NCBI GenBank assembly: GCA_047600605.1
Contig: JASGKK010000002.1
Span: 1,075,509-1,139,508, forward strand
Length of the DNA: 64,000 nucleotides
Reading direction: 5' to 3'
Source: Chitinophagaceae bacterium
GTDB lineage: Bacteria; Bacteroidota; Bacteroidia; Chitinophagales; Chitinophagaceae
Positions 20,201 through 31,252 of the stretch are shown in pieces (positions within the stretch are counted from its first letter, which is position 1; each line of letters opens with the position of its first letter). Made by a program: the position numbers and the translations under genes. Under the pieces are notes generated by a model, which ran no database searches, was not told where the DNA came from, and saw only the letters and a list, made by a program, of their open reading frames with translations.

Positions 20201-21262
20201 ATGCCCCGCTGCAAGCGGTGGTGAGCAATGAGACCGCTAACATTGATGTGTTCTTTGATAATCTGCAGAACTTGCCCCGAGCTTGCTTCGGGGTGACACA
20301 TATCCGGGGATCGATCCTGGAAGAGACGCAACTTGCCCCGCCAGCGGCGGGGTTACTATCCTTTTGGGTTGACGATGGCGGGGATATCGTCGAAAGCGTT
20401 GGCTTTTGGCTCTCCGGAGAATAGGTATAAGTTTAACGAAGGTACTGAATTAGAGCATAAAGAATTTAACAACGGAGCAGGCTTAGAATGGTACTCAACA
20501 GAATTTAGAAAATATGATCCGCAAATAGGACGCTTTCATCAGATCGATAATCTATCATTTTTGACCTATGATTATAGCCCATACACTTTTGCAAATAATA
20601 ACCCAATCTTGTTAAACGATCCCTTAGGCCTAACGGGAGATACCGCTTGGAAGGAACTTGCCCCTGTAGTTGTTACAGCAAAAATCCCCAAACCTTTAGA
20701 TACAGAGAATGGTCAAGTCTTGCCGCCACGATCCAGGTTTTGGGATTTTTGGGAAGGGAATCGTACATGGCAAGCGTACCCGGGAAGTTTCTATCGACAT
20801 GCAGTTGATCATCGAGGATACATAATTCCGAATGCACCATCTCCGCCAATCAAGTTTGAAATAAACATTCCGCCTGTAAGTTTTACAAGAATAAATCTAA
20901 GAGCCGTTTTTAATCTTAAGAACTGGATCAAAGGTCGATTTGCGATATACAGAGGAAAGAAATTCAATGGAGAATTGTACATTGGGAAAGCAACCACAAA
21001 AGATGGAAGCCTGTCTTTTAGATACTCAGCAGACGAAATCCTTGAGCTAGAGGCTACAGTGATAAAGGGATTAGACAATATACCAAACAATGCAATTGCT
21101 CTTGGAGTCGAGCAGCTAATAATTGATTTAAACGGTGGAATTCGTGGTGTCAATGTTGCTAATAAAATACCGGCTACGGTGAAAGAAATTTATATGATTG
21201 AGGCGAGATATTGGCTGAATCAAAACTTACCCAATTGGGAGACGCTATTAAAATTTCAATGA
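20201..21262 (+). pseudogene. orphan rhs cassette 1: 5'-truncated, frame-disrupted core plus an intact C-terminal toxin ORF (20333..21262)
   Basis: Homology to the main gene starts at the equivalent of 18523 (..[16 protein letters not shown]..). The core continues [28 protein letters not shown]...YDPQIGRFHQIDN...NNNPILLNDPLGL (20618-20632), followed by a unique 209-aa tail. There is no N-terminal RHS body or signal peptide. Confidence 0.8.
20204..20352 (+). repeat. three short GC-rich hairpin insertions in the rhs core of orphan 1
   Basis: H1 20204-20221 CCCCGCTGCAAGCGGTGG. H2 20269-20292 AACTTGCCCCGAGCTTGCTTCGGG (24 nt). H3 20331-20352 ACTTGCCCCGCCAGCGGCGGGG (22 nt). All three are absent from the intact gene (18520-18640) and from orphan 2. 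Confidence 0.85.
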
Positions 21263-21873
21263 TGAAAAAAAAACTCTTTTTTACAGGATCTGTGTTTCGG
21301 TTTTATATACCTGAAATTGGAAAGTATGGTTTTTGTAAGTTTTTTGATTTTAAACATTTAAGTGTATTTCATGGGCTACTTGCGCAGGTATTTGATAAGT
21401 TTACAGATACGGAAGACAACACAATAGATGATTTAAAAACTTGTGACTGGCTGTTCGGTCCAAGAAGCATATACAAATGGCCTGATTTAAAAAAAGATAC
21501 TGGTTGGAAATTATTGGGCATCTTGAATTCTGCTAAAGATGATTTTGTTCCGGATTTTAAAGAAGTTCAAGCCTTTCCCACGGTTGTAGAAGATGAGTCG
21601 AAAAAGGGGCCGTGGTATCCTATACATAATTTAACCCAAAGGGGTGAAAACTGTAATTATGGACAAGTAAAGCATTTAGAGCAAATAATCCTTACTCCCA
21701 CTATTGGGCTTATATTAAGAACTGGTATGGAATACTGCAGAATTAACGGTCTGAATGTTGGTGATTACTATGATTTAAGTAAGGCGGGCATTAAAAGTAC
21801 GTATTTGCAGATGATAAATGTTCCAATTTATAGCACCATTCCTTATGAAATACGAGGGAAATCAATAGTGTGA
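21259..21873 (+). CDS. putative immunity protein for orphan toxin 1
   Basis: The ATGATGA junction overlaps the toxin stop (21260-21262). 204 aa: MMKKKLFFTGSVFRFYIPEIGKYGFCKFFDF..., which is Imm26-like in style. The assignment rests on position. Confidence 0.65.
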   Translation: MMKKKLFFTGSVFRFYIPEIGKYGFCKFFDFKHLSVFHGLLAQVFDKFTDTEDNTIDDLKTCDWLFGPRSIYKWPDLKKDTGWKLLGILNSAKDDFVPDFKEVQAFPTVVEDESKKGPWYPIHNLTQRGENCNYGQVKHLEQIILTPTIGLILRTGMEYCRINGLNVGDYYDLSKAGIKSTYLQMINVPIYSTIPYEIRGKSIV

Positions 21874-21934
21874 ACCCATTACACTGTGGTATCCAAACCC
21901 TTTTGATCCATCTTCTATATGGTAAAAAATAGTA

Positions 21935-22738
21935 ATGAAAATTGATATTTTTAGATTGACTTCGATTGATCATGCCGGTGTCGGTAATGAAGAAAACGGA
22001 TTAGTCGACCTGCTTTATTCCTTTTTACTTTGGAAGAATGGACTGGATTATTATAAATACATATTGATTAATCAAATTGGAAAGGATCAACAGATTAAAG
22101 AAGTAGTTCAAATTAAGAATGGCCGGGTTCATGTTAATTTAATTTACACCACCGAAAAGAATTTTGATCAGTTAGATGATTATAGGAAAAATACGATCAA
22201 GGTAGATATTATCCATGAAGGGCTTCAGAGATTATCCAAAGTTGATCCAAGGTTTTCTGATGAATTGCTGAATAAAATTAGAGGTCAAATAATTTCAAAG
22301 AATTTTTCTGTTGAATTGGAAAGTATTGGAAAGAATAGTCCTTTTGACAAAGAAGTTAGTGGCAAAATGGTGATTTTGCCCACCCCGAAATACTTTGACT
22401 ATTACCTTTTGATAAAGAATGGCAGCAAAGAAATATGTAGGCAGTTTATTTATAGAGGCGCCCCAACATCCGATTATTTCTACGCTTTTTTTTCAAGAGC
22501 TAAGTGGAAGAATAACATCACTTTTATTGTTGAAGGACGTGAAAAACAAATGCGATTGAAACTTGATGTTTCTAATTGTAAAGTTACTTTTGAGAATTTA
22601 ACTCATTACCCCAACCCACCCTTATGGGAAATAATGAAAGTAGGCATAAGTGAACAGGAAAGCAAAAGCGCCTACGAAAACTGGCTGCACTCCCTTCCTC
22701 CTGCGGTTGCCGCGATGATAAGGGATCACGAGAATTAG
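21935..22738 (+). CDS. uncharacterised 267-aa protein, tandem paralog 1 (candidate orphan immunity/accessory protein)
   Basis: MKIDIFRLTSIDHAGVGNEENGLVDLLYSFLLWKNGLDYYKY... with C-terminus ...PPLWEIMKVGISEQESKSAYENWLHSLPPAVAAMIRDHEN. Confidence 0.8.
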   Translation: MKIDIFRLTSIDHAGVGNEENGLVDLLYSFLLWKNGLDYYKYILINQIGKDQQIKEVVQIKNGRVHVNLIYTTEKNFDQLDDYRKNTIKVDIIHEGLQRLSKVDPRFSDELLNKIRGQIISKNFSVELESIGKNSPFDKEVSGKMVILPTPKYFDYYLLIKNGSKEICRQFIYRGAPTSDYFYAFFSRAKWKNNITFIVEGREKQMRLKLDVSNCKVTFENLTHYPNPPLWEIMKVGISEQESKSAYENWLHSLPPAVAAMIRDHEN

Positions 22739-22751
22739 TTTCAATATAGAT

Positions 22752-23555
22752 ATGAAGATTGAAATTTTTAGACTAATTTCTATAGACCCTAATGGTATAG
22801 GAAATCGAGGAAATGGGTTATTAAATATAATTTATTCCTACCTACTGTGGAAGAACGGGTTGGATTATTATAGGTTCATCAAGGTAAACCAAATTGGGCG
22901 GGAGCAACAGGTTAAGGAATTTGTAGAAATTGACAAAGGATACGTCCATATAAATTTAATATATCCCACAGATAAGGATTTCAATTTGCTTGATGATGAT
23001 AACAAAAACAAAATTCGTCTAGAAGTTGCTCATGCAGGTTTACTGCGATTGGCAGAGGTTGATTCTCGGTTTTCTATATCTAAACTGAATAAAATTCATG
23101 AAGAAGTAATAAAAAATAATTTCCAAATTGCATTGGAAAGTGATGGTAAGATAAATCAATTTGATAAGGGCGTTCTGGTAAAGCTGTTAATCTTACCAAG
23201 TATAACCTACTTCGACTATCACTTGATAATTCAAAGGGATGGTGCCGAAATTTGCCGACAATTTTTATACCGGGGAAAGCCCGCACCTGACATTGTTACC
23301 TATTTTTTTTCTAAGCCAAAGTGGAAAAATAAAAACGAATTGGTAATTGAAGGAGAAGAAAAGCAAATGCGTCTCCGATTAAATATATCCAATTGTAATT
23401 TGGAGTTTCAGAATTTGACTCAGTATCCAAGCCCACCCTTGTGGGAAATGATGAAAGTAGGCATAAGCGAACAGGAAAGTAAAAGTGCCTACGAAAACTG
23501 GCTGCACTCCCTTCCTCCTGCGGTTGCCGCGATGATAAGGGATCACGAGAATTAG
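22752..23555 (+). CDS. uncharacterised 267-aa protein, tandem paralog 2
   Basis: MKIEIFRLISIDPNGIGNRGNGLLNIIYSYLLWKNGLDYYRF... with the same C-terminal ~40 aa as paralog 1. Confidence 0.8.
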   Translation: MKIEIFRLISIDPNGIGNRGNGLLNIIYSYLLWKNGLDYYRFIKVNQIGREQQVKEFVEIDKGYVHINLIYPTDKDFNLLDDDNKNKIRLEVAHAGLLRLAEVDSRFSISKLNKIHEEVIKNNFQIALESDGKINQFDKGVLVKLLILPSITYFDYHLIIQRDGAEICRQFLYRGKPAPDIVTYFFSKPKWKNKNELVIEGEEKQMRLRLNISNCNLEFQNLTQYPSPPLWEMMKVGISEQESKSAYENWLHSLPPAVAAMIRDHEN

Positions 23556-23568
23556 TTTCAATATAGAT

Positions 23569-24372
23569 ATGAAGATCGAAATTTTCAGATTAATTTCAAT
23601 TGATCCCGATGGTATCGGCAATCAAGGAAACGGCTTGTTAGATATTCTTTATTCTTATTTATTATGGAAGAATGGTTTAGACTTTTATAAATTCATTAGG
23701 ATTAATCAAATTGGGCATGAGCAACAGATAAAAGAATTCGTAGAAATTGAAAAAGGGAAGGTACATGTTAGTCTAATCCATCCTACGAACAAAGAATTCG
23801 ATTTACTTGATGACTACAACAAGAATAAGATTCGATTGGAGGTAATACATGCCGGACTACTTAGGTTGGCAGAGGTTGATCCCAGGTTTTCACCAAATGT
23901 GCTTGAGAAAATTCGTGAGAATATCCTCAATAGTAATTTCAATGTCGCGCTGGAAGGGGAATGGAAAGTAAACCAATTCGACAGAACTGTTCAGTTTAGC
24001 TTTTCAGTTATACCGTACACAGCATTTTTTGATTATTATATAACAGTTCAGAGGGACGGAATTGAAATTTGTAAGCAGTTTTTATATCGAGGGAAGCCTA
24101 ACCCTAGTATTGCGTATTACTTTTTTTCTAGGCCAAAATGGAAAAATAAAAGCGAGTTGGTGATTGAAGGGGAAGAAAAGCAAATGCGTCTCCGTTTAGA
24201 TATATCCAATTGTACTTTAGAGTTTCAAAATTTAACCCAGTATCCAAATCCACCGTTGTGGGAAATGATGAAAGTGGGCATAAGCGAACAGGAAAACAAA
24301 AGTGCCTACGAAAACTGGCTTCACTCTCTTCCACCGGCAGTCGCCGCGGTAATAAGAGATCACGAAAATTAG
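23569..24372 (+). CDS. uncharacterised 267-aa protein, tandem paralog 3
   Basis: MKIEIFRLISIDPDGIGNQGNGLLDILYSYLLWKNGLDFYKF... with C-terminus ...SAYENWLHSLPPAVAAVIRDHEN. Confidence 0.8.
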   Translation: MKIEIFRLISIDPDGIGNQGNGLLDILYSYLLWKNGLDFYKFIRINQIGHEQQIKEFVEIEKGKVHVSLIHPTNKEFDLLDDYNKNKIRLEVIHAGLLRLAEVDPRFSPNVLEKIRENILNSNFNVALEGEWKVNQFDRTVQFSFSVIPYTAFFDYYITVQRDGIEICKQFLYRGKPNPSIAYYFFSRPKWKNKSELVIEGEEKQMRLRLDISNCTLEFQNLTQYPNPPLWEMMKVGISEQENKSAYENWLHSLPPAVAAVIRDHEN

Positions 24373-24423
24373 TTTCTGCTAAAATATAGGTCCCTGTGAG
24401 ATTTTTTTTGTAAGAAAAATTAT

Positions 24424-25053
24424 ATGAAATATCTCTTAATCTCTGTGGTCATAGTATTGGGGTGTGGGAATGATAAGGGGACGGAGAAGGAATCAGTCAC
24501 TACCCTCAATGATACACTTACATCTGTCCAAAATTCAGTACCTGATTCAATGATATATAAATTAATTAGGGACAACCTTTATGTTGGTAAGGAAGGAGGA
24601 ATTGCATTTAGAGTGACAGATAAATCAAATCCAGAAGCATATGAGCCACGATATGTTACCACGGTTTATGTAGACGGCGTTACAGGAGCTGAAAAGCGTC
24701 TGCTGAAAGACCATGTCGACACCGCTTCCTTTCATGTAATTAAGGGAGTGTATTATGCGGATAAGAGCCGAGTGTATGTTCATAATGACATGTCCGATGG
24801 GGGTAATTTGGCGACAATTGCAAATGTCGATCCGAAAGGTATTTCAGTTCTCAGCTGTTGTTACGCTAAGACAAAAAAAATCGTCCTTTATCAAGGTAAT
24901 ATTATTGAAAATGCAGACCCCCTAACATTCAAAATTGTAAAAAGCGATTTCGAAAAAGGACAAGCGGGGCTTTTTGGGAAAGACAAGCACAATACCTATT
25001 ACATGGGGACTCCAATCACTGCTGAAGAAATAAAACAGTACGGAGTCAAATAG
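24424..25053 (+). CDS. DKNYY-family lipoprotein
   Basis: Lipobox MKYLLISVVIVLGCGND. DKNYY-type repeats YYADKSRVYV and GKDKHNTYYMG. Confidence 0.7.
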   Translation: MKYLLISVVIVLGCGNDKGTEKESVTTLNDTLTSVQNSVPDSMIYKLIRDNLYVGKEGGIAFRVTDKSNPEAYEPRYVTTVYVDGVTGAEKRLLKDHVDTASFHVIKGVYYADKSRVYVHNDMSDGGNLATIANVDPKGISVLSCCYAKTKKIVLYQGNIIENADPLTFKIVKSDFEKGQAGLFGKDKHNTYYMGTPITAEEIKQYGVK

Positions 25054-25866: not shown

Positions 25867-27636
25867 CCGCAACGATACGCTGGAGTTTATCAGTCAAGAA
25901 GAAGTACGGATCCGTAAAAAAGGTACTACTGCGCTGGTATACGATTACATGCTCAAAGATCACCTGGGCAATGTGCGAATGCTGCTGACCACCGAGCGGG
26001 ATACATCGTTTTATCCCGTAGCCAGCCTCGAAACAGCCAGCCTGGCTACCGAACGCAATTATTATAGTGGCGTGGATACCGGCCGGGTTAATAAAAGTAC
26101 TGTGGCGGGTTATCCCGGCGATACCTATACCACCCCCAACGATTTTATCCAGAAGCTGAATGGCGCTGGTCCGAAGATCGGTACCAATATGGTGCTGAAG
26201 GTGATGGCAGGTGATAAAGTAAACCTCTTTGCCAAAAGCTGGTACAAAAAAACGGGATTACACCCGGCACGCCTAATAATCCGCTGACCAATATTCTCAA
26301 TGTGCTGGAGCCGGCCATCGGGGGTATTACAGGCACGCACGGCGGAGCTACGCTGACGGAACTACAGACTACCAGTGTGCTGGATAACCAGGTGACCAGT
26401 TTTCTCAACAGCCAGAGTGGCTATACCACCAGCAAACCCAAGGCTTTTGTGAACTGGGTATTGTTTGATGAACAGTTTAAATATGTGGCTGCCAGCAGTG
26501 GTTTTGAGCAGGTGGGAGCCGATAACACATTGACCACTCATACCCCGACTGCTATTAACATTTCAAAAGGCGGTTATTTGTATATTTATGTGAGCAATGA
26601 GACACCCAATGTAGACGTGTTCTTTGACAACCTGCAGGTATCTCATATTCGCGGGCCGATCCTCGAAGAAACCCATTATTATCCTTTTGGCTTAACGATG
26701 GCGGGGATATCCTCAAAGGCGTTGGCGTTTGGAGAGCCGGGGAATAATAGGAAATGGAATGTTGGAAGTGAATTAGCAAGTAAAGAGTTTAGTGATGGTA
26801 GTGGATTGGAGCTTTACGAAACGTTTTATAGGAGTATTGACCCGCAGATAGGAAGATTCTGGCAAATAGACCCAGAATTTGAAGCACAAGAGAACTCTTC
26901 TCCATACGAAAGCATGGGAAATAATCCGATAAGTAATATGGATCCGCTGGGTGATTTTAAAACTAAATTTGGTGCAAAATGGCATAGATTTTGGCATGGT
27001 GGCGGGGCTGTTCAGAAAAATGAATATGATGAATGGTATGTAAGCAAAAGCAAAGTTGAAGATGATGGGAACGGCGGTACTGTTGTGAAATCGTGGAAGT
27101 ATTACGGTAAGGGAAGGGACAAATACTTTACAGTAAGAGAAGCTCTTTTAAAAGACTATGCTATCATGGAGGATATACAACAGAAGGGGGATGCCTCTAT
27201 GTACCAAATGTACGATTCGCCAGAAGATGCAGGTAAAGCAGCTTTGAGTCTTGGGGTAGGAGTTGTTCTTCCAAATCCAGTTTTAAAGACGGGTACAAAT
27301 GCTGCGAATGCTACTCAAGTCGTTGCAAATGGAACTACAAAGGTACTTTCAAGAGCAGAGCGATTACAATTGTTCAAAGAGAGTATATTAAATGCACCTA
27401 TGCCTAAAAACCCTAAAGAGGCATTAAAGCTAATAAATAAAATTTTGGATAAAATAGAGGATGCTCATGCAGGTGCTAATGATAGAATGTATGGGATACT
27501 TGACAAAAAGTATGTGACTACCCGTTCAGATGGTGGACTTACTGCTTTAACTAAAGGGCATAGAATAGAGATATCGACTAATGGTAGTTTTAGTATTTAT
27601 GAGAGGGCTACTGGAAACCTATTTTTAACTAAATAG
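25867..27636 (+). pseudogene. orphan rhs cassette 2: 5'-truncated RHS body+core, frameshifted in an A7 tract, with a unique C-terminal toxin (open part 26302..27636)
   Basis: Homology begins at the equivalent of main-gene position 17801; 57 of 60 nt match between 25947-26006 and 17881-17940. The frame breaks at A7 (26246-26252). The core ends ...NNPISNMDPLGD (26941-26955), followed by a 226-aa unique tail. Confidence 0.8.
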
Positions 27637-27637
27637 T

Positions 27638-27904
27638 ATGAAAAAAGAACAAAAAGAAAAAAGTAGGATCGTTGCTATTTTGGATCAATATTCAATTAAG
27701 TACAAAATACATCAATTACTTTCAGGAGTAATACTTATTGATATTTGGTATAACGAAAAGTTTTATGTCATTCAATTGGAAAAAAATATGTTTGGCTTAT
27801 CTGAAATAAATGCAGGTAATCCCGGATTCGACACCATTCCTGACGAGAAGTTTAAAAACTTTCAGGAATTGGAGAATAGACTATTAATTATTCTTTCTCA
27901 ATGA
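27638..27904 (+). CDS. putative immunity protein for orphan toxin 2
   Basis: 88-aa ORF whose ATG lies 1 nt after the toxin stop (TAGTATG). A terminator follows. The assignment is positional only. Confidence 0.6.
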   Translation: MKKEQKEKSRIVAILDQYSIKYKIHQLLSGVILIDIWYNEKFYVIQLEKNMFGLSEINAGNPGFDTIPDEKFKNFQELENRLLIILSQ

Positions 27905-27915
27905 GTATTAAAGCC

Positions 27916-27942
27916 AACCACTCCTCACCGAGTGGTTTTTTT
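27916..27942 (+). terminator. intrinsic terminator
   Basis: AACCACTC-CTCACC-GAGTGGTT followed by TTTTT. Confidence 0.7.
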
Positions 27943-27962
27943 ATGCCTAAAACTTAAACAAC

Positions 27963-28519
27963 ATGGAACTAAACACAACTAACCCGCACTGCTTTATCTA
28001 CAAGACTGATGAACTACTGATAGAACTGCTTGGAGGAATGCGAATAGAAGGCTTAGACAGAATGCGTGTAACGATCAAAGTGACAGTGATAAACCGCAAA
28101 CATGCAGGCTATTTAAACAATAAAGAACTGGCTGGATTATCGACAATCTGGATTTGTGCAATGACACACAGGTGGAGAAGTTTGTAAGAAGAGTTGCAGA
28201 GAAGTTGGAAACGGGCAGCATAGCCCTTACTAAAGCCATTGCAGACATCACCAGCCAGTTAGGAGAATACAGGCTCAAACAATTGGATAAGCAAGAGACA
28301 AGGAAGGAGAAGGATTTAAGCAAGGAAGAACGGGAAACAGCTATACAGTTCTTGGAGCAAAAGGATCTGCTGAACAGAACCAATGAGCTGATAGGTAAAA
28401 GTGGTGTGATAGGAGAAGAAACCAACAGGTTGCTCATGTACCTGATATTTACCAGCAGAAAAAGAGAGCATCCCCTGCATGTGATTTCACTGGGTAACAG
28501 CGGTATTGGAAGCCTGTAA
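27963..28519 (+). pseudogene. 5' fragment of a mobile-element primase/helicase-like P-loop gene (frameshifted and truncated)
   Basis: Two overlapping ORFs in different frames (27963-28187 and 28154-28519). The second ends ...NRLLMYLIFTSRKREHPLHVISLGNSGIGSL*, breaking off inside a Walker-A-like GxxGxGK. It resembles replication proteins of Bacteroidota mobilisable/conjugative elements, from memory only. Confidence 0.5.
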
Positions 28520-28616
28520 CTAAAATGCCGATCAGGGTTCGGAACGTCGAAGCGAGCGTGGCAACAGGCGATGCTAGTAGTAATGCAGTTGGGTTCATAA
28601 GACTTCTTTTATTAAC

Positions 28617-29533
28617 CCCAACGATTTTATCCAGAAGCTGAATGGCGGCGGTCCGAAGATCGGTACCAATATGGTGCTGAAAGTAATGGCAGGTGACAAG
28701 GTAAACCTGTTTGCCAAAAGCTGGTACAAGAAAAATGGGGTCACACCTGGCACACCTACCAATCCGCTTACCAGTATCCTGAATGTGCTGGAACCGGCCA
28801 TCGGAGGTATTACAGCTTTACATGGCGGAGCTACCTTAACAGAGCTACAGACTACCAGTGTACTCGACAACCAGGTGACCAGTTTCCTGAACAGCCAGAG
28901 TGGCTATACCACCAGCAAACCCAAGGCTTTTGTGAATTGGATACTGTTCGACGAACAGTTTAAATACGTAGCCGCCAGCAGTGGTTTTGAGCAGGTTGGG
29001 GCCGATAACACATTGACCACCCATACCCCGGCCGCTATTAATATTTCAAAAGGAGGTTATTTGTATATTTATGCGTGCCCCGCTGCCAGCGGTGGTGAGC
29101 AATGAGACTGCCAATGTAGACGTGTTCTTTGATAACCTGCAGAGCTTGCCCGAACTTGCTTCAGGGTGACGTATATCCGTGGACGGGTCCTGGAGGAGAC
29201 GGAACTTGCCCCGCCAGCGGCGGGGTTATTATCCTTTTGGGGTGACGATGGCGGGAATAAGCAGTAGGGCATTGACACTCGGTTCTCAAAAGAATAGGTA
29301 TAGATACAATGGCAAGGAGTAAGAAAGGCAGGAGTTTGCAAATGGTTCAGGGTTGGAATGGCTGGATTATGGAGCGAGAGTGTACGATGCTCAAATTGGA
29401 AGATGGAACAGCATTGATATTTTGTCTGAAAGTATGACCCGCTTTTCCCCATATATTTTTTGCTTTTGACAATCCTATAAATTATATAGATCCCGATGGT
29501 ATGAAGCCAGTATGGAATGGAACTGATATGTAG
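28617..29533 (+). pseudogene. orphan rhs cassette 3: heavily degraded core with hairpin insertions, internal stops and almost no toxin tail
   Basis: Homology begins at the equivalent of main-gene ~18068 ([32 protein letters not shown]...). There is a stop after ...YRYNGKE and several frameshifts. The core end reads ..[13 protein letters not shown], followed only by KPVWNGTDM*. Confidence 0.8.
29074..29225 (+). repeat. three hairpin insertions in the rhs core of orphan 3, at the same positions as in orphan 1
   Basis: H1 29074-29095 CGTGCCCCGCTGCCAGCGGTGG (22 nt). H2 29143-29165 AGCTTGCCCGAACTTGCTTCAGG (23 nt). H3 ~29202-29225 GAACTTGCCCCGCCAGCGGCGGGG. Confidence 0.85.
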
Positions 29534-29667
29534 GCGATGTTCAGAGGTATTATTAATTTAGAAATTATGCAGAAGATAAGAATTACGTTATTATGAATTT
29601 GGAATATGGAGAGGAATGTGCCGAAATTAAACTTGATAATTGAGAGTAAATAAAACCTGTAATAAGC

Positions 29668-30063
29668 ATGTATATAGGATCCCTTGTAGAAACTCTTATT
29701 TCTAAGATTGTACTCGAACAGGGTGATTTAGAGGACAGTGAATTAATTTTATTTCTCATAAATAATGATAATTCAAAGGAGGCAAGTATTTATGTAACAC
29801 TATTTACTCCTATTGTTTTAGGAAGAATCATTTGCGAACCCTTAAATGTGGAATTTGTTAATGTTTACCATGAACAGTTAGAAGATGGAACGGAAAGAAA
29901 AGGCTTTTTGACAGAAAATTCTTTCTATACAGAAATCTACAAGATTGTAAAAACACTGATAAAAAATGGTTTCATTGATGAAGACAGTGTTTTTAAAATT
30001 GCTTTACGGAGCCCTGAGTTTAGACTTTTAAATGATTTCATATTGAAAGGTAATAATGTGTAA
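29668..30063 (+). CDS. hypothetical protein (possible orphan immunity gene, perhaps 5'-degraded)
   Basis: 131-aa AT-rich ORF downstream of degraded cassette 3. No motif recognised. Confidence 0.5.
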   Translation: MYIGSLVETLISKIVLEQGDLEDSELILFLINNDNSKEASIYVTLFTPIVLGRIICEPLNVEFVNVYHEQLEDGTERKGFLTENSFYTEIYKIVKTLIKNGFIDEDSVFKIALRSPEFRLLNDFILKGNNV

Positions 30064-30071
30064 TAGTCAGT

Positions 30072-31252
30072 ACTTGATCTGACAGTTGAGGATTAATTTT
30101 TTAATTTTCAAAAGGGATGCCGATTAAATTAGTTAGGCTGCTGAACTTACCTGGTTCAGCAGTTTTTGTTTAGCTAAGGTAATAGATTCAGTAAAGGTAA
30201 GCATGGGGGTTTTGCCAAAGCAGTATCTGCCACTGTGTGGTCTTTCGTTGTTGTAGAACTCCAGCCACTGATCCAGGTCGTGTTGGAGCGTTTCCAGATT
30301 CTGGTATAATTTTTTACGGAATGTGATGGCATAGAACTCCTCCTGCATCGTTCGATGCAGGCGTTCGCAGATACCGTTGCTTTGGGGATGACGAACTTTT
30401 GTCTTGCTATGATCGACTCCTTCGATCTGTAGGTACAGAGCGTACTCATGGCTTTCAGGTCTTCCATTAAACTCGGTACCGCGGTCGGTGAGTATCCGCA
30501 GCAGGGGTATTTGTTGCTGTTCAAAGAAGGGAAGAACCTTGTCATTGAGTATATCTGCCGCTGTAATAGCATGCCTGCTGGTATACAGTTTTGCAAAAGC
30601 TACACGGCTGTAAGTATCAATGAAAGTCTGCTGATAAATACGGCCAACCCCCTTGATTGTTCCAACGTAGTAGGTATCCTGTGAACCCAGGTAACCTGGA
30701 TGCTCCGTTTCTATTTCGCCATGGGCCTCCAGTTTCTCCCTTTTACGCTCCAGGGCTATCAACTGAGCTTCTGTAAGGATCAGCCCAGCCTGAGCAACAC
30801 GGACTTCCAGGGCCTTTAACCGCTTTTCGAAGACTTCCAGGTCATGGCGCTGCCACACACAACGGACCCCTGCAGCGGAGATAAAAATGCCCTGTTTGCG
30901 TAATTCATTGCTGATCCGGAACTGACCATAGGCCGGATAGTCAAAGGCCATCTTCACAACAGCTTCTTCCACAGCCGGATTGACCCGGTTCTTCGGTACA
31001 GGTTTGCGGCGGCTGATCTCCCGCAGCGCCTCTTCTCCACCGGTATCATATAACTGTTTGATGCGGTAAAAACTGTCCCGGCTGGTGCCCATTAACTTAC
31101 AGGCACGGGTGACGTTGTTCAATTGTTCAGCCAGGTTGAGCAGGCCAATGCGGGATTTGATTAACTTAGTTTCAGAGTTCATGATCTGACTTTTGGGGGT
31201 TATTAATTTAGTTTGTCGTTACTCTAAATTAACCCCAACTGTCAGATCAAGT
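30072..31252 (-). mobile_element. IS481-family insertion sequence
   Basis: 17-bp perfect terminal inverted repeat ACTTGATCTGACAGTTG (30072-30088 versus the reverse complement of 31236-31252), extending imperfectly to ~26 bp. A single transposase ORF lies inside. I saw no clear target-site duplication. Confidence 0.85.
30133..31182 (-). CDS. IS481-family transposase (HTH + DDE/rve integrase core)
   Basis: 349 aa. ...[23 protein letters not shown]... HTH, then DTYYVG...FIDTYSRV...[10 protein letters not shown]...[19 protein letters not shown]. Confidence 0.9.

Follow-up and report, generated by a model that had tools for sequence, protein, structure and literature searches.

Why should a bacterium carry, side by side, three versions of a gene that matches no family model? 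The question is raised by a stretch of 64,000 nucleotides (nt) from the Chitinophagaceae bacterium assembly GCA_047600605.1 (contig JASGKK010000002.1), referred to here as the window, in which three intact open reading frames (ORFs) of 267 amino acids (aa) each, termed copies a, b and c, follow one another in the same orientation (coordinates in Table 1). Their layout agrees with what had been reported from the letters alone in a note that we call the original prediction: the period is exactly 817 nt from start to start, and the spacers are 13 nt. There is no intervening ORF of another kind. That prediction, which cited orphan immunity arrays of Bacteroidales as precedent, took the trio for an immunity or decoy array in which gene conversion keeps the ends uniform while the middle diversifies. 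The reading that we favor, with a probability of roughly 0.8, is that the copies are paralogous immunity genes of three types (a, b and c) directed against a Tox-URI2-like toxin tip of DUF6443-type Rhs proteins, and that the toxin itself has been lost from the window. Nothing supports a decoy role.

The evidence that carries this reading comes from the surroundings of the homologues, in which Rhs cores, toxin tips and family members were mapped by tblastn and ORF extraction. In 13 distinct loci (L001(-L004), L009, L010(=L025), L013, L014, L015/16, L023(=L032), L024, L026, L029/30, L031, L033 and L035), a family member is immediately preceded, on the same strand, by an Rhs core with a homologous tip; in the seven loci measured, 3-75 nt separate the stop codon of the tip from the start of the family member. 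The tips are mutually homologous, and each combines the DPxGL end of the core with a linker rich in Pro/Ser/Thr, a hydrophobic stretch and a domain of ~110 aa that is conserved. The carrier is a full-length Rhs protein in L009 (1541 aa) and L010 (1504 aa) and an orphan fragment in L001-4, L015 and others, and the toxin domain on the fragments is the same as that on the full-length proteins. There are also 11 loci, the window included, in which at least 1.6 kb of upstream flank is available and the family member stands without such a toxin. The check that the original prediction had named, whether homologues elsewhere directly follow a toxin tip, is thus positive in 13 independent loci, and this adjacency, together with the orphan copies, is the genomic pattern expected of a cognate immunity protein whose gene also travels without its toxin. 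On these grounds the 267-aa family is most likely the cognate immunity protein of the Tox-URI2-like tip.

The nature of the toxin can be approached through its conserved domain, in which the motifs HIVYxF, LKxGISD, RPxxQ and RxxxRxxALxxE, as well as an H and a W, are invariant. Within the toxin alignment the invariant residues Y19, K34-x-G36, Q51 and E81 match the signature 'Y, KxG, [EQ]' of Tox-URI2, a toxin family found on RHS proteins, including those of Bacteroidetes, and associated with the immunity families Imm9, Imm12, Imm39 and Imm44 (Zhang, Aravind et al. 2012, PMC3482391). An AlphaFold2 (AF2) model shows the order beta-beta-alpha-beta-alpha, with predicted local distance difference test scores (pLDDT) that exceed 90 throughout the domain, and its top Foldseek matches are the GIY-YIG domain of UvrC and I-TevI. 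The domain is therefore a probable nuclease of the URI/GIY-YIG fold, Tox-URI2-like in type. Searches with the full tips (~240 aa) gave no Pfam match at E<=0.1, the Tox-URI2 matches being confined to the isolated ~110-aa domain, and nothing was found among PDB sequences.

A protein encoded beside a toxin could also be an accessory factor (a chaperone, an adaptor or an activation factor) and not an inhibitor. The size and two-part architecture of the 267-aa protein, which are unusual for an immunity protein, would suit such a role, as would the absence of similarity to known Imm families. The genes of known Rhs chaperones and adaptors, however, lie upstream of the toxin gene and go with the N-terminal region of the toxin, whereas this family always lies immediately downstream and tracks the C-terminal tip. 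In addition, it persists without the toxin in about half of the loci and in tandem arrays, which is to be expected of a protective protein but not of a helper. An accessory role is accordingly very improbable. The sequences of the trio, read directly, have no visible signal peptide or hydrophobic N-terminus, which fits a cytoplasmic inhibitor of a nuclease.

The relatives also indicate what the three types would be for. The orthologue of copy a, in L001/L002 (83% aa identity), lies directly behind an a-type toxin. Copy b has orthologues at 84-85% aa identity in L010, where the gene lies directly behind a full-length Rhs with a b-type toxin, and in L001, where it follows copy a. Copy c corresponds to P0003/L024 (82-91% aa identity, depending on the region), where the gene is immediately preceded by a toxin domain of the c type. 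Identity between the toxin domains is 65% for a-b, 65% for a-c and 82% for b-c, and the distances between toxin domains and between immunity proteins are correlated (Mantel r=0.87, exact p=0.018), a figure drawn from 7 pairs and confounded by shared ancestry. Because the orthologue of each type sits behind its own toxin variant, the window strain carries putative antidotes to three non-self variants. Each 267-aa protein would bind and block its own toxin variant in the cytoplasm, and the array would shield the strain from a-, b- and c-type toxins delivered by neighbors that still make them; the variable center of the protein (~residues 105-165) would set which variant is recognized.

What became of the toxin in the window can be read from what lies just upstream of the trio. 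The original prediction had stated that no toxin gene precedes the three copies, a misleading statement, since the copies are themselves part of an Rhs toxin locus, in which the upstream Rhs genes are non-cognate and in which a scar of the cognate toxin gene, comprising its last 17 codons, is present. The scar reads EPITLWYPNPFDPSSIW before its stop codon, and the 3' end of the toxin gene in L001/L002 reads KPIAQWYPNPLDPSAMW; the scar ends 9 nt before copy a. Homology to L001 begins exactly at the stop codon of the Imm26-like ORF, covers the 17 remaining toxin codons and continues into copy a. When the toxin tips (~240 aa each) were searched by tblastn over the window, no match beyond the scar was obtained. 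Thus, the window encodes no intact cognate toxin, and a 17-codon a-type scar is what is left of it. The idea that immunity genes are kept here without their toxin is therefore supported, with toxin-linked homologues in the 13 loci elsewhere and a toxin reduced to a scar in the window.

Two relatives show the arrangement with the toxin in place. In L010, which belongs to Sphingobacteriales bacterium 46-32, synteny with the window extends from the gene upstream of the Rhs to the Rhs core. The Rhs genes are 81% identical at the nt level, an alignment that ends at window position 18668, beyond which L010 has a Tox-URI2-like tip. This tip is followed by one b-type immunity gene and then by the DKNYY gene, whose DNA is 76% identical to window positions 24424-25046. 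L001 is the closer relative (87% nt identity in the Rhs); it has an orphan a-type tip with copies a and b directly behind it, and the spacers are again 13 nt. This suggests a standard Rhs cassette replacement, in which the Tox-URI2-like tip would have given way to an orphan tip that arrived together with its Imm26-like immunity gene. The left junction of the incoming module would have formed by recombination in the conserved Rhs core, and the right junction would have been illegitimate, falling within the 3' end of the displaced toxin gene. By this route the toxin would have been removed and the old immunity genes kept.

An observation of a different kind concerns the two relatives themselves. 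L001 10819-11970 and L010 8002-9152, which contain the b-type gene and downstream DNA, are 98.9% identical, and the upstream Rhs genes are 80-83% identical. This mosaic suggests a recent horizontal exchange of the segment on the immunity side.

Reduction of the cognate toxin to a 17-codon scar could also mean that the trio is a decaying, unexpressed relic of the displacement, of no benefit to the strain. The position of the genes, behind an orphan module without a recognizable promoter, would agree with this, as would the finding that regular toxin loci usually express only the complete toxin and the adjacent immunity gene (PMC3482391). Scans for promoters and terminators gave fewer sites than shuffled sequence, with a sigma-70 consensus that may not apply to this phylum. 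Against decay stands the state of the genes: all three are intact at exactly 267 aa and under purifying selection, and all 14 of the family residues that are invariant or nearly so are kept in every copy. The ratio of non-synonymous to synonymous substitution rates (omega) over the whole gene, relative to the orthologues, is 0.05-0.11 at synonymous distances (dS) of 0.7-1.7; it is 0.11 for copy a and its L001/L002 orthologue and 0.09 for copy c and L024. These values indicate purifying selection over the divergence from the orthologues, some or all of which may predate the toxin loss. Orphan copies are also maintained in ~10 other lineages. A relic is thus quite unlikely, and retained immunity is the better account of the trio.

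How the three copies came to differ in the middle and to agree at the ends was also addressed in the original prediction, which invoked recurrent gene conversion at both ends together with diversifying selection on a toxin-contacting center. By BLASTP, copies a and b share 62% aa identity, a and c 62%, and b and c 75% (E 1e-128 to 1e-157), so the similarity is not due to chance, and the alignment of the three is free of gaps. The C-terminal 45 aa (residues 223-267) are indeed nearly identical, at 91-93% in all pairs, and residues 105-165 are indeed strongly divergent, forming the lowest segment at 38-48%; residues 46-104 and 166-222 are intermediate, at 56-80% and 58-84%. Copies b and c are 80-84% identical outside residues 105-165 and 43% within. 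It is the central segment that separates the three types. The first 45 residues, which had been called nearly identical, are 64% (a-b), 71% (a-c) and 82% (b-c) identical; the description holds, loosely, for b and c only, and the N-terminal motif quoted with it fits those two copies only.

Conversion between the copies can be sought at synonymous sites. Their proportion of synonymous differences (pS) is saturated almost throughout, at 0.6-1.0. In codons 1-30 it is 0.69-0.79, and third-codon-position identity over the N-terminal 45 aa is 0.51-0.56; because synonymous sites are saturated there, the N-terminal similarity reflects purifying selection and not homogenization. The 3' end is different. 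In codons 238-267, pS between a and b falls to 0.17, and a 90-nt tract comprising the last 69 nt of one copy, the spacer and the first 8 nt of the next is exactly identical at the a/b and b/c junctions and cannot be extended by a single base on either side. Copy b is b-type to ~nt 690 and, from ~nt 705, a-type at 16 of the 17 sites that separate a-type and b-type orthologues. The final residues of each of the three window copies are ..IRDHEN, as in type a; in other genomes, the orthologues of b and c finish with ..AAIVRDSNN. At synonymous sites, copy c is not homogenized in its C-terminal part (pS 0.54-0.59). The recombination signal is therefore limited to the 3' ~100 nt, with b and c carrying a-type tails; the claim of uniform ends kept by conversion holds for exchange in this segment and fails for the N-terminus. 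Close relatives have arrays of one (L010), two (L001) and three (window) genes. The 90-nt tract would be the footprint of a homologous exchange in this conserved segment. If an a-b array and an a-c array had undergone one unequal crossover there, the outcome would be a copy b with an a-type tail and a b/c junction identical to the a/b junction, in an array with one copy more. Such a single event, the simplest reading, would explain the tract as well as ongoing homogenization does.

The center shows no sign of continuing diversification. It is the most variable segment family-wide (entropy of 2.5-2.6 bits, compared with 1.85-2.3 elsewhere), as conversion with diversification would have it, and this entropy is correlated with the variability among the window paralogues (Spearman 0.34-0.41). 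Within types, however, the center retains 77-85% aa identity to the orthologues with omega 0.08-0.19, which argues that the central divergence is not neutral and, on present evidence, is not under ongoing positive selection either. The differences between close b alleles (at 16 synonymous and 8 non-synonymous codons) are spread over the gene without clustering. The C-terminal similarity has a further source in constraint, since N221, L222, T223, P228, P229 and S253-P256, among others, are family-wide invariants; together with A260, they are invariant in 17 sequences. Recurrent conversion at both ends coupled to diversifying selection is therefore unlikely, even though exchange at the 3' end is real and the center is the most divergent part. 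Under the reading of the copies as three immunity types, the center looks like a set of fixed, type-defining differences that are now under purifying selection, which fits a role in specificity without proving it.

Several points weigh against the assignment of the trio as immunity genes for a Tox-URI2-like nuclease. Neutralization, binding and nuclease activity are all inferred. The Pfam Tox-URI2 model (PF15653) is matched by five of the seven toxin domains with a best E of 0.0028, which is presumably sub-threshold, so that the family assignment is weak; the Foldseek matches are likewise weak, with E 0.27-1 and target-normalized template modeling scores (TM-scores) of 0.44-0.48. At 267 aa the protein is large for an inhibitor of a ~110-aa domain. 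The toxin-less loci make up about half of the members with adequate flanks, a proportion that fits orphan immunity and would also fit another function. Co-variation of toxin and immunity protein, taken region by region, has r 0.64-0.82 everywhere and does not single out the center. Finally, the scans are uninformative about expression of the trio, and orphan modules are often silent.

Beyond the window, the 267-aa family is small and has no annotation. No family model in Pfam or NCBIfam was matched by the trio, and an hmmscan of 48 family members against Pfam-A gave no recurring family and no Imm family at E<=1; scattered matches of individual members (e.g. SseK_NleB, E 0.039) were judged to be chance. 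A word-indexed search of 5.8 billion proteins returned 20 clusters at 90% identity, and an exhaustive search returned 98 representatives at 50% identity, 74 of them with E<=1e-10. The named records (Sphingobacteriales bacterium 46-32, Parafilimonas, Terrimonas, Flavisolibacter, a Chitinophagales metagenome-assembled genome and 'Bacteroidetes bacterium') place the home of the family in Bacteroidota of the Sphingobacteriales/Chitinophagales type, to which the host of the trio also belongs; it is not one of the Bacteroidales.

An AF2 model of the protein, built on the 48-sequence alignment, has pLDDT 95.5 and a predicted TM-score (pTM) of 0.89. In the predicted fold, an alpha/beta part at the N-terminus is followed by a beta-rich part (residues 141-221) and by helices at the C-terminus, and the variable residues ~105-165 form a helix, a loop and two strands. 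In neither PDB nor BFVD did a Foldseek match reach E<1e-3 (best 6.4e-3 and 1.3e-3, respectively; query-normalized TM-score <=0.29), and a PDB sequence-profile search with the family gave nothing meaningful. A likeness to propeller blades seen by Foldseek in both databases is local only (TM-score <=0.29) and was not read as homology. A bolder proposal would be that the family represents a new two-part immunity fold, that the center alone encodes the specificity classes, that the conserved 3' ~130 nt act as a homology patch by which genes are stacked through unequal crossover, and that the locus is a natural case of cassette capture; taken as a whole this is tentative and rather doubtful. One orphan member of the family, P0017 (L018 1601-2758; 385 aa), has the 267-aa domain fused to a C-terminal DUF1493 (Pfam 1.1e-09) and may be a fusion of the polyimmunity type. 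No literature tying DUF1493 to immunity was found.

Among described systems, the closest counterparts are homogeneous polyimmunity loci, in which immunity genes of one family stand in tandem, in the same orientation, with short gaps and no interspersed toxin, and which are thought to protect against toxins of non-kin; 'extended' loci have at least 4 genes (PMC3482391). The trio has the features of this class (one family, one strand, 13-nt spacers, no toxin between the genes), and its copy number varies among close relatives. Unlike extended loci, it has only three genes and belongs to a family outside the listed Imm families, and unlike stand-alone polyimmunity loci it lies inside a regular locus of Rhs toxin and orphan cassettes. 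The replacement of a tip by a toxin-immunity cassette is established for polymorphic toxins (PMC3482391). As in tip displacement in Rhs and contact-dependent inhibition (CDI) systems, there is a conserved core, there are variable tips each with an immunity gene and orphan fragments that start in the core, and the immunity gene of the displaced module is retained downstream. Unlike the usual case, the displaced tip in the window has been deleted almost wholly, the right breakpoint lying within the last 17 codons of the toxin.

Recombinase-associated acquired interbacterial defense (rAID) arrays of gut Bacteroidales are SUKH-based, are directed against effectors of the type VI secretion system and have been shown to protect (Azhieh et al. 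2025, bioRxiv 10.1101/2025.05.03.651265). The trio shares with them the maintenance of orphan immunity genes that have diverged from toxin-linked cognates. It differs in that no tyrosine recombinase was seen beside it among the scanned genes, in that the toxin carrier is a DUF6443 Rhs with a Sec signal, and in that its host is of the Sphingobacteriales/Chitinophagales type. With Imm9, Imm12, Imm39 and Imm44 it shares a predicted task, the neutralization of a URI-fold toxin on Rhs proteins, including those of Bacteroidetes; unlike them, it has no sequence similarity to these families (48 family members, Pfam) and a fold without a significant match in PDB or BFVD. The trio is thus neither an rAID array nor a member of Imm9, Imm12, Imm39 or Imm44. 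What is new is the protein family, its fold and its pairing with the Tox-URI2-like tip; the kind of system is well known.

The general picture of polymorphic toxin systems is therefore unchanged, and the trio would be an ordinary case of a known defense strategy. Its value is that a probable function can be given to a family of ~98 clusters at 50% identity that has no Pfam or NCBIfam model, and that this family is tied to a specific, poorly characterized Rhs toxin tip in Bacteroidota of soil and wastewater. The natural history is clean, with three types and three toxin variants in relatives, a scar that dates the toxin loss and a mapped recombination junction. The locus should be a convenient one in which to study the residues behind toxin-immunity specificity and the growth of such arrays.

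The remaining features of the locus are those of an Rhs polymorphic-toxin locus (Table 1).

Table 1. Positions of the trio and of neighboring features in the window
Feature	Position	Strand	Description
Full-length Rhs	15159-19553	+	1464 aa; Sec-type signal peptide, DUF6443, RHS/YD repeats, Rhs-associated core, C-terminal tip
SUKH (SMI1/KNR4) immunity gene	19544-20008	+	Pfam SMI1_KNR4 1.4e-08, SUKH_6 3.9e-06
Orphan Rhs fragment	20333-21262	+	309-aa ORF; Rhs-associated core and 209-aa tip of a different type
Imm26-like gene	21259-21873	+	Pfam Imm26 1.9e-4, below the curated cut-off
Toxin-gene scar	21872-21925	+	Last 17 codons and stop; aligns with 3' end of L001/L002 toxin gene
Copy a	21935-22738	+	Intact ORF, 267 aa; type-a putative immunity gene
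90-nt tract, first copy	22670-22759	+	Last 69 nt of copy a, 13-nt spacer, first 8 nt of copy b
Copy b	22752-23555	+	Intact ORF, 267 aa; type-b putative immunity gene, last ~100 nt a-type
90-nt tract, second copy	23487-23576	+	Last 69 nt of copy b, spacer, first 8 nt of copy c
Copy c	23569-24372	+	Intact ORF, 267 aa; type-c putative immunity gene
DKNYY-family lipoprotein gene	24424-25053	+	Pfam DKNYY 2.5e-11; syntenic right boundary of the immunity block
Transposase of insertion-sequence type	30133-31182	-	Helix-turn-helix (HTH) and rve integrase core (Pfam); ~6 kb downstream of the array, at the distal end of the Rhs orphan array

The full-length Rhs matches Pfam DUF6443 (3.9e-29) and RHS_repeat, and NCBIfam Rhs_assc_core at residues 1152-1243; its tip is unrelated to the toxin cognate to the trio and presumably pairs with the SUKH gene, to judge from position alone. 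A literature search on DUF6443 gave nothing useful. The orphan fragment upstream of the trio matches NCBIfam Rhs_assc_core (1.3e-11, residues 8-100). A Pfam scan of its 209-aa tip (20633-21259) gave no match, Tox-URI1 included; a GIY-YIG-like motif, 'AIYRG..ELYIGKA', can be seen in this tip by eye only. Imm26 is listed as an immunity family for Tox-URI1 (Zhang et al. 2012, PMC3482391). The ATG of the Imm26-like gene overlaps the TGA stop of the orphan tip as ATGA (21259-21262, read from the sequence), and this gene is likely to be the immunity partner of the tip.

Downstream of the trio, the DKNYY gene is followed by a 182-aa ORF and then by further orphan Rhs fragments accompanied by small candidate immunity genes (25.9-27.6 kb and 28.6-29.5 kb). 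The first of these regions contains a 444-aa ORF (26302-27636), an orphan Rhs fragment whose tip has no family assignment, followed by an 88-aa ORF (27638-27904); the second contains a frameshifted Rhs fragment (~28616-29452) followed by a 131-aa ORF (29668-30063). The small ORFs behind Rhs fragments in 25867-30063 are probably additional orphan immunity genes, although none has a family assignment. Between the fragments, at 27963-28519, two short overlapping ORFs (74 and 121 aa) resemble the remains of a disrupted gene. Pfam scans of all but a few short ORFs in 9.5-31 kb detected no XerC/D-type tyrosine recombinase, and the sole mobile-element gene among the scanned ORFs is the rve/HTH transposase. 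In L024, a transposase-like ORF, judged by eye, directly follows the c-type immunity gene.

Upstream, within 9547-19553, genes of 480 aa, 1242 aa (DUF5977) and 129 aa precede the DUF6443 Rhs as a conserved set. The same gene order is found in L009 (292-9989), where genes of 506 aa and 1161 aa stand before the 1541-aa Rhs, and the set together with the DUF6443 Rhs may constitute a Bacteroidota-specific Rhs delivery cassette. Lastly, an element of ~87-91 nt recurs at 91-93% identity in the Rhs loci of three genomes (window 28510-28600; L001 4902-4988 and 14599-14689; L010 10414-10500 and 11208-11298). The window copy and the one at L001 4902-4988 each stand shortly before an orphan Rhs fragment, and the element may mark a cassette boundary or serve as a recombination site.

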